Part shown: piece by piece, positions 4,368 to 41,544 of the stretch
Position numbering within the stretch: position 1 is the stretch's first letter
Layout of the letters: each line of letters opens with the position of its first letter
Sequence record: MW598459
DNA from: Escherichia phage vB_EcoM_RZ
Reading direction: 5' to 3' (one strand)
DNA length: 64,000 nt
Translations under genes and position numbers: made by a program
The notes under the pieces: generated by a model
Told to the model about the DNA's origin: nothing
Database searches by the model: none
Seen by the model: only the letters and a program-made list of their open reading frames with translations

Positions 4368-5942
4368 ATGGCAGGTTTTAATACAATACTAAATTTTCTT
4401 AAGCCTTGGGCTAAAGAAGATGAACAAGAATATAAGCAACAAGAAAAAAATAATTTAGAGTCAATGACCGGGCCGAAGTTTGATGATGGGGCTCGCGAAA
4501 TTGAGTCACAAGAACAAAACGTCCCGTATAATGCATTGATGCAACAGATGTTCGGGAGCAATGAACCTGAAGTAAAAAATACCAGGGAATTAATTGACAC
4601 CTACCGCAACTTACTAAATAATTATGAAGTTGATAACGCAGTGCAAGAAATTGTGTCTGATGCTATCGTTTTTGAAGACGGTAAAGATGTTGTAGCTCTT
4701 AACCTTGATGCTACCGAATTTAGTCAGAAAATTAAAGACCGAATCCTCGAAGAATTTTCGGAAGTCAATAACCTCCTTAATTTCGAGCGCAAAGGTTCTG
4801 ACCACTTTAAACGTTGGTATGTGGATTCTCGAATTTTCTTCCACAAAATTATCAACCCATCAAAACTTAAAGATGGAGTTCAAGAACTTCGTCGCCTTGA
4901 CCCAAGACAAATCCAGTTCATCCGTGAAATCGTTACACGCATGGAAAACGGTACAAAAATTGTCGACGGTTACAGAGAATATTTTGTATACGATACTGGC
5001 CATGAAAGTTATTGTGCCGATGGTCGTATATATGAAGCAGGTACTAAAATAAAAATTCCTCGTGCGGCGATTGTATATGCGCATTCTGGATTACTTGATT
5101 GCTGCGGCAAGAATATCATCGGATACTTGCAACGAGCAATTAAACCTGCAAACCAATTAAAACTATTAGAAGATGCTTTAGTCATTTATCGTATAACTCG
5201 TGCTCCAGACCGCCGAGTCTTTTATATCGATACCGGGAATATGCCGTCCCGTAAAGCAGCAGCACACATGCAACATATTATGAACACGATGAAAAACCGT
5301 GTCGTATATGATGCAACTACGGGTAAAATCAAAAACCAACAGCACAACATGTCAATGACGGAAGACTATTGGTTGCAACGTCGTGATGGTAAAGCAGTCA
5401 CTGAAGTTGATACACTCCCGGGTGCACAAGGCATGTCGGATATGGACGATGTTCGCTGGTTTAAGAACAACCTATATCAGGCTCTCCGAATTCCATTATC
5501 TCGTATCCCTAATGACCAAAACAGTGGTGTTATGTTTGATGCGGGCGCGACAATTACTCGCGATGAATTGAATTTCTCTAAATGGATTCGACAGCTACAG
5601 AATAAATTTGAAGAAGTTTTCCTCGACCCACTTAAAACCAACCTTATCCTGAAAAAAATTATTTCAGAAGAGGAATGGGAAAAGGAACTAAATAATATTA
5701 AAGTTACGTTCAACCGTGATAGCTATTTCACTGAAATGAAAGATGCAGAAATCATGGAACGCAGAATCAATATGCTAACGATGGCTGAACCGTTTATCGG
5801 TAAATATATTTCGCATCAAACGGCTATGAAGGATTTCCTCCAGATGTCTGATGAAGAAATTAATCAAGAAGCTAAGCAAATTGAATTGGAGTCCAAAGAG
5901 GCTCGTTTCCAAAACCCTGAAGAAGAAGAAGAGGATTTCTAA
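4368..5942 (+). CDS. 20: Portal vertex protein gp20
   Basis: 524 aa, same length as T4 gp20, with extensive identity (e.g. ...[34 protein letters not shown]...); GGAG ribosome-binding site. Confidence 0.95.
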
Positions 5943-38833: not shown

Positions 38834-39183
38834 TTGGTGAGCTCCTGAAAGTCCTGGGCGAACTTATCAAAAGACTGATTAATCTGTTTTTCAACTAATT
38901 TAGGCTTCGCAGCCACAACCTTAGTACGTTTTGCATCTGCACGAAGTTTATCATTTTCCTTCTGTAGGTGTTCAACATATTCCTGACGCTGTTGGTCAAG
39001 GAGATTAATTTGATTAACCTGGTCTTTTATTGATTGCAGATTTTTCGCATTATCTTCTGCGACTTTGGTGACTTCCGCCACCGCTGTCTTGAGATTATCC
39101 ACTTTTGCTTTTAGATAGAAACCACTACCAGCAGTTACTACCAGGGCGAGCATAAGCCCTGCAGTGAGATTACTTATTTGCAT
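38830..39183 (-). CDS. Inner-membrane spanin (i-spanin), pseT.3 position
   Basis: 117 aa; N-terminal transmembrane helix (LTAGLMLALVVTAGSGFYL) followed by a coiled-coil-like K/E/Q-rich region; ATGA overlap with the o-spanin gene. Confidence 0.65.
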   Translation of the reverse strand: MQISNLTAGLMLALVVTAGSGFYLKAKVDNLKTAVAEVTKVAEDNAKNLQSIKDQVNQINLLDQQRQEYVEHLQKENDKLRADAKRTKVVAAKPKLVEKQINQSFDKFAQDFQELTK

Positions 39184-39677
39184 AACTTGATGATTACCTC
39201 AACAATATCATCCTGGGATAAACCATTCAGGAGGATGTGATTTGTACTGTCAGATGCTGAAATGCGGAACTGATTACCAACTTCATCCGCCATATCATCC
39301 TGGGTTAACACTGGGTGTTTAATTCCCAGGCGGTGTTGAAGTGTCAGGGGTTCAACCACAACATAACAAACACATCCATTGATATGCACATTAGGTTGGG
39401 TCTGATTGATGAACACTTCTGCATCATATTTAACCAAATGGTTCTTTAAGAAGTCAACCATTTCAGGAACAGATTCATGCAGTGCTTCTTTCCGCTCTTC
39501 TGATTTTTTATCGCGATATTCTTTTTGTTTCGCCTTCAACTTTTTGTTAGAGGCGAGTTTTTTCCGCAGGTCAGTCATAAGACCAATTTTCTTGGTCCCT
39601 TTATAGACATAAATTCCGTCATGACGGTCACCATATTCATTGACAATCATTTCATTTGAAATCAGTTGCATATCCAT
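39174..39677 (-). CDS. alc: Putative Alc (inhibitor of host transcription on cytosine-containing DNA)
   Basis: 167 aa from the ATG at 39677 (GAGGA ribosome-binding site), same length as T4 Alc; position between pseT.3 and gene 63 as in T4; assignment by size and synteny. Confidence 0.6.
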   Translation of the reverse strand: MDMQLISNEMIVNEYGDRHDGIYVYKGTKKIGLMTDLRKKLASNKKLKAKQKEYRDKKSEERKEALHESVPEMVDFLKNHLVKYDAEVFINQTQPNVHINGCVCYVVVEPLTLQHRLGIKHPVLTQDDMADEVGNQFRISASDSTNHILLNGLSQDDIVEVIIKLCK

Positions 39678-39924
39678 AATATTTTCCTCATTAGTAGCGG
39701 TTATAACCCCGGGGACCAAAAGAGTTGGCACCCAGGCGCTCATCTTTCTTTTTGGCTCTTGCTCTAAACCCGGAATCACCTGTTTGAGCTTTCAGTTCTT
39801 TTAACAATTTGGCCTTTAGGTCAGTAATGAAACCAATCCGGCGGTCTCCCTTATAGACATAGATTCCATCATTTCTGTCACCATATGCCTTTGTAACTCT
39901 GTCATTTGTAATTAAGTTTAACAT
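39569..39924. repeat. Direct repeat (~105 bp, period 250 bp) duplicating the alc 5' coding region
   Basis: Copy 1 at 39569-39677 and copy 2 at 39819-39924 share blocks such as GGTCAGT.AT.A.ACCAAT and CCTTATAGACATA.ATTCC.TCAT...GTCACCATAT; the encoded peptides share ...YGDR.DGIYVYKG...IG..TDL.AKL.K.LKA. Confidence 0.6.
39691..39924 (-). CDS. Hypothetical protein (77 aa) paralogous to the Alc N-terminus
   Basis: Start at the ATG at 39924 downstream of an early promoter; MLNLITNDRVTKAYGDRNDGIYVYKGDRRIGFITDLKAKLLKELKAQ aligns with Alc residues 1-50. Confidence 0.5.
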   Translation of the reverse strand: MLNLITNDRVTKAYGDRNDGIYVYKGDRRIGFITDLKAKLLKELKAQTGDSGFRARAKKKDERLGANSFGPRGYNRY

Positions 39925-39955
39925 GTTTTGGTCCTCATCAGTAGTTGATGGAACC

Positions 39956-39985
39956 ATTATGTATAGAAAGAAGGGGCTTGTACAC
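39956..39985 (-). promoter_or_regulatory. Early-type promoter (GTGTACA, 17 nt spacer, CATAAT) with the -35 in a hairpin loop
   Basis: Minus strand reads aaggGGTGTACAAGcccctt...CATAAT; AAGGGG / CCCCTT stem at 39971-39990; conserved GGTTCCATCAACTACTGATGAGGA leader follows. Confidence 0.5.
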
Positions 39986-39994
39986 CCCTTTTTA

Positions 39995-41131
39995 TTATTC
40001 AGGAAGGATTACTTCCGCCTGGTAGTCTAACGGAATGTAAAGTTTATGATTTTTAAGGAAAACTTTATTGATTTGAGCAATCGTTTGTTCAGTTTCCTGT
40101 GGGCGTTGATAGGTGTTCATTAATACGGAGAACAATCCCGGATATGGTTTACATAACTCTTGACCTTTAATCGCAAACTCGCGACGGTCTTTTCCTGCTA
40201 ACTGTTTTTGTGCATCAAGCAACAGTCCAAGAGTGTTGGACAGATAATCCAGATGTGTTGCAGTAAAGGCAGTAACTTTTTCACGAGCATAAGTATCGCC
40301 AGTAAACATGGCAATAACATCATCCGCGCCGCCAGCAACAACAACTTCAAACAGTCGCTCATTATTATTAATGGAGTCTTTAGTATGATGCAGAGCACAA
40401 TACCATTCTGTTTTCATCTTGAACTTCTGACCGTTAGCCATCTCATAGACGAAGCCTTCAATCTCTTTCATACCGCGAACATTCTCAATGGTTGCCGGGT
40501 CATATGCTTCAACCAGGAAAGGACGAAGCGCTGCATCTTTGAACAGCTCCTGATAAGGAATATATTCACCAGTTTCATTATGACGAACGTTCAGTAAAAT
40601 CAGGTCACGTTCCTGGTAAGGCAAAACAATGCGGTTGGTCGGTGCAACATATTCCATGTTGCATGTATAACCAGCTTCAGTGATTTCAGTCACACGAGCC
40701 CTGAATGCACTGCGATGTTCTTGTTTAAACACCTGCAAGGATTCAGCTGCTTGGGAGCTTTTGATTGACCCTTTGGATTTAAAGGCGATATTGGTCTGGT
40801 CCATATAAGTGGAAACCAAACTACCATCAGCTTTTGCAGTAACCAGGACAACTTCATCAAGGTTAAGGTCCATGGTCATTGGATTCTCACCCAGATTAAA
40901 GAATTTTTCCATAGGACGAGCAGCAATGCGAACTGGACCATTGTCATCCATTTCAAACATAATGCCACGGCACTCCAGCGCATCATCAAGAAGCCAATCA
41001 CTATAGGAAGCATAGTTATAGCTAAAGATGCGGAACTTAGTTTCAAATGGAGAAACAAAATCCGTATAGAAAAACTTACCTTTATCGGATTCGGCACAAA
41101 GCTTCATTAAGTTATCATATAATTCAATCAT
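39995..41131 (-). CDS. rnlA: RNA ligase 1 (RnlA, gene 63)
   Basis: 378 aa (T4 Rnl1 is 374 aa); strong match (YRIFSYNYASYSDWLL.DALECRGIMFEMD...VRIA.RPMEKFFNL.ENP.TM...DGSLVSTY). Confidence 0.92.
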   Translation of the reverse strand: MIELYDNLMKLCAESDKGKFFYTDFVSPFETKFRIFSYNYASYSDWLLDDALECRGIMFEMDDNGPVRIAARPMEKFFNLGENPMTMDLNLDEVVLVTAKADGSLVSTYMDQTNIAFKSKGSIKSSQAAESLQVFKQEHRSAFRARVTEITEAGYTCNMEYVAPTNRIVLPYQERDLILLNVRHNETGEYIPYQELFKDAALRPFLVEAYDPATIENVRGMKEIEGFVYEMANGQKFKMKTEWYCALHHTKDSINNNERLFEVVVAGGADDVIAMFTGDTYAREKVTAFTATHLDYLSNTLGLLLDAQKQLAGKDRREFAIKGQELCKPYPGLFSVLMNTYQRPQETEQTIAQINKVFLKNHKLYIPLDYQAEVILPE

Positions 41132-41544
41132 TTCTTCACCTTATGTTGGTAATTCCACGGGGGATTAAAAAGCTTGATGAACATCGGCTCTTCCAGAGAC
41201 ATCGTTTCGACTGACATTGTGCCAAGTTCATTGGTCATTGACAGATTGAAACATTGTCGTGCATAGAATACCACCTTTTTGCCTTCTTGTAAAGCTTCAT
41301 GTATCATCCGGGATTTGTTTGAATCACTCGTCTGTTCGATTCGGTTAATTGCAGTCCGGTAATAGTTGATACGCTTCTTAAGGTTGTTCGTCTTACCAAT
41401 ATACACTAGTTCATCATCAACTGAAATAGCATAGATAACATTTTTCTTGTTTGCGAGAGTAAGGATAGGGATTTTATCATCGACTAACTCTAACTCCGCG
41501 TATTTTATAAAACTGTATTCGTCAGCGATTTGTTTCATAGACAA
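41128..41544 (-). CDS. denA: Endonuclease II (DenA), GIY-YIG family
   Basis: 138 aa (T4 EndoII is 136 aa); near-identical (EYSFIKY.ELEL...NVIYAI...DELVYIGKT.NL.KRINYYRTAINR...FYARQCFNLSMTNELGTM...FIKLFNPPWN.QHK). Confidence 0.9.
   Translation of the reverse strand: MSMKQIADEYSFIKYAELELVDDKIPILTLANKKNVIYAISVDDELVYIGKTNNLKKRINYYRTAINRIEQTSDSNKSRMIHEALQEGKKVVFYARQCFNLSMTNELGTMSVETMSLEEPMFIKLFNPPWNYQHKVKK

Follow-up and report, generated by a model that had tools for sequence, protein, structure and literature searches.

Within a 64,000-nucleotide (nt) stretch of Escherichia phage vB_EcoM_RZ (sequence record MW598459; hereafter the window), we analysed alcB, an open reading frame (ORF) of 77 codons that lies between the RNA ligase 1 gene rnlA and alc, the gene for the transcription-termination factor Alc, through which the phage turns off transcription of the host. 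The comparisons described below make it very likely that alcB is the product of an ancient partial tandem duplication of the alc leader and roughly the first 60 alc codons, and we are equally confident, judging from the pattern of substitutions, that it is a real gene and not a relic. A role as regulator or decoy of Alc appears to be the most plausible function on sequence grounds, and we assign a probability of about 55% to the overall explanation that AlcB modulates Alc through docking of the head module shared by the two proteins.

Partial tandem duplication and age of alcB

Searching the window for repeats recovered two direct pairs with a spacing of 250 nt, 39598-39662 versus 39848-39912 (65 nt, 75% identity) and 39568-39587 versus 39818-39837 (85% identity), where an initial annotation made from the letters alone had placed direct repeats of about 105 bp lying 250 bp apart. 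A third pair, absent from that annotation, was found at 39685-39708 versus 39932-39955 (75% identity, spacing 247). It falls within the ribosome-binding leaders 5' of the two start codons and includes both Shine-Dalgarno sequences (CTACTGATGAGGA and CTACTAATGAGGA), and the duplicated unit is therefore a leader plus about 62 codons.

The similarity between the two copies was significant at both DNA and protein levels. The two 250-nt repeat units aligned by blastn over 96 nt at 73% identity (E 5e-11), and their global alignment score lay 9.6 standard deviations above 500 shuffles. BLASTP of the AlcB and Alc products gave 31 of 64 identical residues (E 7e-17), and profile-profile comparison of the two families (hhalign, with 21 Alc proteins) matched AlcB residues 2-57 to Alc residues 3-58 with 99.5% probability (E 1.7e-22). 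This similarity is not of the low-complexity kind; it covers a beta-hairpin with a predicted helix before it and the beginning of another after it. Two adjacent direct copies are thus alike at the DNA level, non-coding leader included, and relatives with a single copy have the same flanks. These results upheld the partial tandem duplication of the alc 5' region proposed in the initial annotation, including the related N-terminal peptides encoded by the repeats; the ORF list and Pfam likewise supported its reading of one copy as the start of the 167-amino-acid alc gene and of the other as a separate ORF of 77 amino acids.

The window belongs to Gaprivervirus (the SP18/VR7 group of T4 relatives). 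The best match at the locus is Escherichia phage DK-13 (99.1% over 1 kb), and the whole window aligns to DK-13 positions 15054-78392. The gene order on the minus strand at the locus is nrdB, denA, rnlA, alcB, alc, pseT.3, pseT.2. Only about 34 of 795 phage records contained two places matching the short protein, and the 32 full-length records of Gaprivervirus, from about 27 distinct phages, all keep both copies. A second copy was not found in seven other genera or lineages, namely T4, Jiaodavirus, Mosigvirus, Karamvirus, Dhakavirus, Bragavirus and Winklervirus, where the order is rnlA, promoter, alc. The question of copy number in related phages, raised by the initial annotation, was thereby answered with two copies in Gaprivervirus and in two uncultured lineages and a single copy in those seven.

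Both uncultured lineages came from metagenomic contigs and are associated with the data sets SRR24146912, ERZ27239205 and SRR9703290. An exhaustive profile search with the shared module across 1.84 billion representative proteins returned only 9 matches, among them a 78-amino-acid protein (P0007) that is 47% identical to the AlcB of the window over 76 residues, without gaps and including the tail (E 2e-26). Its contig, L020, reads rnlA, a 56-bp spacer, alcB, a 10-bp spacer and a 167-amino-acid alc; contigs L021 and L022 represent a third lineage with the same arrangement. AlcB is 48% identical between the window and L021, and always sits between rnlA and alc. For the same pair, protein identities are 83% for NrdB, 83% for DenA and 76% for Alc, and 53% for RnlA, 50% for PseT.2 and 44% for PseT.3, so that the divergence of AlcB approximates that of its faster-evolving neighbours. 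Despite this 48% overall identity, 28 AlcB columns are invariant across the three lineages. Judged from these comparisons, alcB is older than the genus Gaprivervirus. As for the recombination product that the initial annotation offered as an alternative, the duplication is neither recent nor a loose product of this kind; it is older than the separation of lineages in which RnlA shares only 53-55% identity with that of the window.

A neighbour-joining tree of the 48-residue head, built to date the duplication, did not group the AlcB sequences, all identities lying between 34% and 69%. Because the head tree does not resolve, the orthology of AlcB rests on synteny and the common tail. Scans of IMG/VR and JGI metagenomes found no new AlcB lineage, returning only Gaprivervirus-type copies and Alc heads; a word-indexed search of proteins with AlcB as the query returned no clusters beyond its own two, and the short gene was not found on contigs with an Alc that is ≤63% identical. 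Two repeat proteins of about 1,400 amino acids (P0008 and P0009), matched by the head profile with E 2e-5 and 2e-4, were rejected as artefacts, since each repeat scored 2-9 bits and the near-identical tandem units were summed.

Three side observations come from the metagenomic sequences. One protein, P0002 (75 amino acids), is a Gaprivervirus AlcB with the tail after residue 55 replaced by frameshifted sequence. Another, P0003 (63 amino acids), is a T4-type Alc whose reading frame is lost after residue 48, which is what an alc mutant or a faulty assembly would show. On contig L021, a 266-amino-acid ORF without a Pfam match (positions 1133-1933) separates nrdA from nrdB. In DK-13 a homing endonuclease gene occupies this place, and the ORF may likewise be an inserted mobile element.

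The gene itself has been catalogued before. SP18 (GQ981382) names alca and alcb, the latter being SP18_gp241 with the remark "similar to N-terminal region of bacteriophage JS98 Alc"; in VR7 it is VR7ORF243c (VR7_gp243). RefSeq labels the gene "inhibitor of host transcription", and elsewhere it is a "hypothetical protein". These database entries are 96-100% identical to the protein of the window, which also matches the 77-position family PHROG 17715 from end to end (1-77, E 9.1e-54); P0007 matches that family with E 4.9e-20. A literature search on the second alc copy (VR7, SP18, alc) found no paper discussing alcB. The gene is thus already known by homology. The present analysis adds tests for selection, orthologues from diverged lineages, a motif in the tail, the history of the promoter and a model of the domains.

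Selection on alcB and architecture of its product

AlcB matched the Pfam family ALC (PF17527) over profile positions 3-62 of 177, and its score of 40.3 bits (E 3.4e-10) exceeds the curated cut-off of 25; the alc product, which is 56% identical to T4 Alc, matched with 166 bits over positions 1-176 of 177. AlcB occupies the genomic position of the family, directly 3' of rnlA and 5' of pseT.3, and does not have the full-length ALC architecture (about 165 amino acids), in which a long helix and a C-terminal alpha/beta domain follow the head.

Selection was assessed on the window and 12 further Gaprivervirus genomes of 93-99% DNA identity. The alcB ORF was intact at 77 codons in 13 of 13, with 5, 2 and 17 variable sites at codon positions 1, 2 and 3. 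The ratio of nonsynonymous to synonymous divergence (dN/dS) came to 0.125 in alcB, compared with 0.113 in alc and 0.074 at the 3' end of rnlA. Codons 63-77 contained 8 variable sites, 7 of them at third positions, and showed no amino-acid change at all. A longer version of the ORF, annotated in DK-13 with 88 amino acids and a start at 39957, was rejected: in the SP18 clade a TAA in the same frame stands two codons ahead of the ATG at 39924, which makes this ATG the conserved start.

Along the locus, synonymous divergence between the window (39174-40310) and the 12 other loci formed a mosaic, with 0.31 in the rnlA 3' end, 0.08 in alcB codons 1-62, 0.30 in the alcB tail, 0.36 in alc codons 1-62 and 0.06 in alc codons 63-167. 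The alc head occurs in two haplotypes (NEYGDR...TKKIGLM and DVYGDR...SKNVGFL), and the C-domain is almost invariant. This mosaic suggests recombination within alc or a recent sweep of its C-terminal part.

AlphaFold2 (AF2) models were obtained for both proteins. The Alc model (21-sequence alignment), with a predicted local distance difference test score (pLDDT) of 92.2, comprises a helix at residues 8-15, a beta-hairpin at 23-26/29-33, a 47-residue helix at 34-80 and a C-terminal alpha/beta domain at 87-166. The AlcB model has the same head with a pLDDT of about 90 (helix 7-14, hairpin 22-32), then a 20-residue helix at 33-53 and a tail at 54-77 with a pLDDT of about 50. Structure prediction of the shared domain, suggested by the initial annotation, thus returned one head fold in both models. 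By these models AlcB is an Alc head with half of the long helix followed by a basic tail, which is probably disordered, and it is without the C-terminal MotA-like domain, the missing part amounting to about 100 of the 167 Alc residues. The invariant residues of the Alc head (I6, G16, D20, G21, I22 and G32, with D36 and L37 near-invariant) correspond to AlcB I5, G15, D19, G20, I21, G31, D35 and L36, and the AlcB hairpin reads DGIYVYKG..IGF.

The tail has no counterpart in Alc. At its C-terminal end it carries the motif RxGxNSFGP...N[KR][FY], in which G65, N67, S68, F69, G70, P71 and N75 are invariant across the three lineages. Among four sequences the same residue occupies 8 of 16 tail columns, and more than one codon is used in 5 of these 8, indicating that conservation acts on the protein. 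The tail is rich in Gly, Pro, Asn and Ser, with four aromatic residues and a net charge of about +5; AlcB as a whole (8.8 kDa) has an isoelectric point (pI) of 10.1, and Alc is near neutral (pI 6.65).

A search of solved structures by sequence with the Alc and AlcB profile returned nothing below E 0.49. At the structural level, the Alc C-domain resembles the C-terminal DNA-binding domain of T4 MotA, which was a top match by two methods with modest scores. These matches suggest that Alc is built like MotA, from a small docking module and a DNA-facing domain, which makes a division of labour between head and C-domain plausible.

Promoter, leader and probable transcription unit

The features of the locus are collected in Table 1. 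A promoter-like element follows rnlA in the window, and the match itself is not above chance: the region contains no more such sites than shuffled sequence does, and this element is the weakest of ten lineages. All ten lineages nevertheless show the same geometry behind the rnlA stop, with T[GT]TAC[AT], a spacer of 16-17 nt and a -10 hexamer. It precedes alc, with a -35 of the TTTACA type, in T4, Mineola, CHI14, LF82-31, CC31, phage 005 and SJ_PmiM, and it precedes alcB in the window, L020 and L021. The promoter of L021 (GGTTTACAAGT...) is almost the same as that of T4 (GTTTACAAGT...), and only 4 of 71 columns of the rnlA-alcB intergenic region vary among the 13 genomes. Read across lineages, the promoter before alcB is the ancestral early-type promoter of alc and not a newly gained one. 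The "own early promoter" that the initial annotation ascribed to the 77-amino-acid ORF is thus better described as that of alc, kept in its place in all ten lineages.

Table 1 Features of the alcB locus in the window
Feature	Position	Strand	Basis
rnlA (RNA ligase 1), upstream neighbour and synteny anchor	39995..41131	-	ORF list; SP18 and DK-13 annotation
Terminator-like hairpin AAGGGGTGTACAAGCCCCTT, directly after the rnlA stop, with a -35-like hexamer in the loop	39971..39990	-	Scan: 7 pairs, 4 G-C, C/T-rich tail (CTTTCT)
Promoter-like element TGTACA-17 nt-CATAAT, positional homologue of the T4-type alc early promoter	39956..39984	-	Sigma-70-type scan, 9 of 12
Predicted leader RNA hairpin: alcB Shine-Dalgarno (GAGG, 39933-39936) and start codon paired with a 5' arm overlapping the -10	39921..39962	-	RNA folding
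Upstream repeat unit: alcB leader with Shine-Dalgarno and alcB codons 1-63	39736..39955	-	Repeat search, DNA alignments, BLASTP
alcB, 77 codons and TAA stop; Alc head module (residues 1-53) and basic conserved tail (54-77)	39691..39924	-	ORF list, Pfam, PHROG 17715
AlcB tail coding region, residues 54-77 (...FRARAKKKDERLGANSFGPRGYNRY), no Alc counterpart	39694..39765	-	Alignment, codon evidence, AF2
Downstream repeat unit: alc leader (also the last alcB codons) and alc codons 1-62	39492..39708	-	Repeat search, DNA alignments, BLASTP
alc Shine-Dalgarno TGAGGAA, directly after the alcB TAA	39684..39690	-	Read from sequence
alc, 167 codons, transcription-termination factor Alc (head, 47-residue helix, C-terminal alpha/beta domain)	39174..39677	-	Pfam, AF2

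Downstream of alcB, alc starts 13 nt after the alcB stop in the window and 10 nt after it in the other lineages, and the 13-nt spacer is invariant in the 13 genomes. In L020 and L021 the TGA stop of alcB is itself part of the alc Shine-Dalgarno motif. Scanning the stretch that separates alcB from alc revealed neither promoter-like nor terminator-like sites, no sigma-70-like site for alc was found on that strand within alcB, and no MotA box (TGCTT) or late promoter (TATAAATA) was seen there by eye. Given the 13-nt spacing and the Shine-Dalgarno at the alcB stop, alcB and alc are probably co-transcribed as a bicistronic early mRNA, with a predicted start about 7 nt past CATAAT, near 39948-39950. 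The terminator-like hairpin after rnlA is kept in the 13 Gaprivervirus genomes and is absent from the matching spacers of T4, L020 and L021.

RNA folding predicted a leader hairpin before alcB of -13.2 kcal/mol in the window (z -2.9), -21.8 in L020 (z -5.8) and -20.7 in L021 (z -6.5), and before alc of -24.4 kcal/mol in T4 (z -6.3), -22.6 in Mineola (z -5.3) and -25.4 in CHI14 (z -6.6). All six folded leaders keep the pairing of the Shine-Dalgarno, with an arm that overlaps the -10 or the spacer and with differing arm sequences, the hairpin of the window being the weakest. On the other compared sequences the hairpins lie at 545-603 (L013), 545-606 (L014), 545-606 (L019), 1000-1050 (L020) and 4712-4762 (L021). 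Transcripts from the proximal promoter would be without most of the 5' arm, so that the hairpin is expected only in RNA that reads through from rnlA, where by analogy it should silence translation of alc, or of alcB. In the two-copy lineages, this control region belongs to alcB.

Function of AlcB, alternatives and known systems

In the explanation we favour, alcB arose by partial tandem duplication. The ancestral promoter stayed with the upstream copy, as did the leader hairpin predicted to occlude the Shine-Dalgarno, and full-length alc, with a Shine-Dalgarno of its own, now follows 13 nt after the alcB stop; a single early bicistronic mRNA most likely serves both genes. The AlcB head would dock where the Alc head docks, on host RNA polymerase or on Alc, and would bring no Alc C-domain with it. 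Termination by Alc on cytosine-containing DNA would thereby be tuned, with restraint or retargeting as the likeliest effect, and the AlcB tail may give a second contact, possibly with nucleic acid. We infer a shared partner because the head is kept, the C-domain lost, the basic tail conserved and the position locked to alc; from such sequence evidence, we rate the chance that AlcB binds the same partner as the Alc head as even. That its net effect is to antagonize Alc is a tentative proposal that we consider rather doubtful.

Several points weigh against this explanation. Our literature search found no transcript, protein or interaction data on AlcB. The promoter match of the window is weak, and the overlapping terminator-like hairpin could alter expression. 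The conserved tail contains no recognisable partner motif, and AlcB could have a function unrelated to Alc. As for Alc itself, termination of E. coli RNA polymerase transcription on cytosine DNA, and not on modified DNA, is established only for T4 Alc (PMC2988021), and as to its contact with RNA polymerase the literature only places genetic suppressors in dispensable region I of beta and describes the mechanism as unknown (PMC2988021).

The strongest alternative, which we consider unlikely, is that AlcB has its own function unrelated to Alc, the head being a scaffold and the tail binding another target such as RNA, single-stranded DNA or a host protein. The tail is indeed the novelty that defines the family, conserved at the protein level in three lineages. 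It has a charge of about +5, four aromatics and a Gly/Pro/Asn/Ser-rich composition, and, like many binding peptides, it is predicted to be disordered. However, all invariant residues of the Alc head were kept while about half of the protein changed, so the head presumably still acts as in Alc, and alcB was never found apart from alc, to which it is tied by overlapping translation signals.

A much less probable alternative is that alcB serves mainly as an upstream reading frame, whose translation would feed or unmask the alc start and so set the level of Alc, with the peptide secondary. The alc Shine-Dalgarno follows or includes the alcB stop with a spacer of 10-13 nt in all lineages, and the leader hairpin that would control translation now stands before alcB and not before alc, as this idea would have it. 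Yet a coupling ORF needs no specific sequence, whereas all 77 codons are under purifying selection (dN/dS 0.125), and lineages at 48% identity retain a 14-residue motif in the tail along with the invariant residues of the Alc head, their codons having changed synonymously.

We consider it very improbable that the 77-amino-acid ORF is a decaying, functionless remnant of a duplication or recombination accident. The copy is truncated, the tail of the metagenomic P0002 is frameshifted and most T4-like phages have no such gene, all of which a remnant could explain, but the ORF is uninterrupted in each of the 13 genomes and likewise in three metagenomic contigs of two other lineages, and its third-position bias, its dN/dS of 0.125 and the 28 invariant columns at 48% identity count against decay. 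To the extent that sequence analysis allows, the selection tests refute this alternative.

Finally, the initial annotation saw in the shared peptide a loose resemblance to a compressed GIY-YIG motif. The idea of a degenerate half GIY-YIG domain, which would make AlcB and the Alc head nuclease-derived DNA-binding modules, was rejected at the sequence, profile and fold levels and retains a negligible probability: the resemblance is superficial, a likeness of motif only (GIY...IG, then a basic helix) in phages where GIY-YIG genes are common and DenA lies two genes upstream, whereas the motifs are separated by 7 residues (GIY-VYKGxxx-IG) instead of the usual 10-11, no counterpart of the catalytic Glu is reached before the shared module ends, Pfam gave no GIY-YIG match at E≤1 for Alc or AlcB, hhalign against the DenA alignment gave probabilities of 0.25% and 0.14%, and the head does not have the GIY-YIG alpha/beta fold. 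DenA (endonuclease II; window 41128-41544), whose gene overlaps the start of rnlA by 4 nt, was the positive control in these tests and matched PF01541 with E 7.2e-6.

The modulation of Alc that we favour may bear on DNA modification in this genus. The alc gene was defined by mutations permitting late transcription on cytosine-containing T4 DNA, which T4 Alc blocks. DK-13 has alc, denA, denB, dCTPase-like and dNMP kinase genes, and a tblastn search of its whole genome with T4 gp42, the dCMP hydroxymethylase, found no homologue (best E 0.32). Its uvsX-imm slot (112736-113389; 12736-13389 in L032) contains a 167-amino-acid ORF with a lipoprotein-like signal (MKKLAIAAVMLLSGC) and a 42-amino-acid membrane ORF; T4 has beta-gt and gene 42 in this slot. 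Gaprivervirus is described as keeping alc, denA, denB and dCTPase without a dCMP hydroxymethylase, and an unknown modification has been proposed (PMC8056088, PMC12115623). That AlcB lets this lineage keep an active Alc without hydroxymethylcytosine, either by competing at the Alc docking site, which would leave its own differently modified or unmodified DNA open to transcription, or by retuning template choice, is improbable, and the link to hydroxymethylcytosine is a candidate one, a correlation in one clade. AlcB, found only in a clade reported to combine loss of the hydroxymethylcytosine pathway with retained anti-cytosine genes, would in that case be a candidate piece of how such phages avoid shutting off their own transcription.

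Under this improbable reading AlcB would be a natural anti-Alc or specificity factor and a ready tool for dissecting the mechanism of Alc, which a 2010 review describes as unknown (PMC2988021). A head-only paralogue that occurs naturally and is under selection divides Alc into its modules with no need for engineering. Should AlcB bind RNA polymerase or Alc and change termination on cytosine DNA, the head would be the docking module and the MotA-like C-domain the DNA-facing one. As a genome feature alcB is ordinary, an annotated small gene from a partial tandem duplication, and its value lies in being an unstudied natural dissection of Alc.

Dominant-negative microproteins are truncated paralogues that have an interaction domain and are without the effector domain, as with Id versus bHLH and LITTLE ZIPPER versus HD-ZIPIII. 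AlcB resembles them as a short paralogue that keeps one module of a larger regulator without the other domain, and it is predicted to be co-expressed with Alc. However, any antagonism by AlcB is putative, it has an extra conserved tail that simple competitors do not need, and the likeness is one of mechanism and not a family relation.

In T4, genes e, soc and 49 use a hairpin that occludes the ribosome-binding site and forms only in read-through transcripts. The alc and alcB leaders are similar in pairing the Shine-Dalgarno with an upstream arm that overlaps the proximal promoter; they differ in that occlusion is a prediction from folding, with the hairpin of the window the weakest of six (z -2.9).

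T4 MotA, with its sigma-binding N-domain, linker and C-terminal "double-wing" DNA-binding domain, has a two-module layout comparable to that of the Alc model. The two proteins have no sequence similarity (12-14% identity) and their heads are unrelated, so MotA bears on AlcB only indirectly. The closest known system is T4 Alc (PF17527, PHROG 1253), with which AlcB shares a homologous head of the same predicted fold, the same rnlA-pseT.3 locus and the same promoter and leader layout, but unlike T4 Alc it ends half-way along the long helix, without the C-terminal domain, and carries a basic tail of its own.

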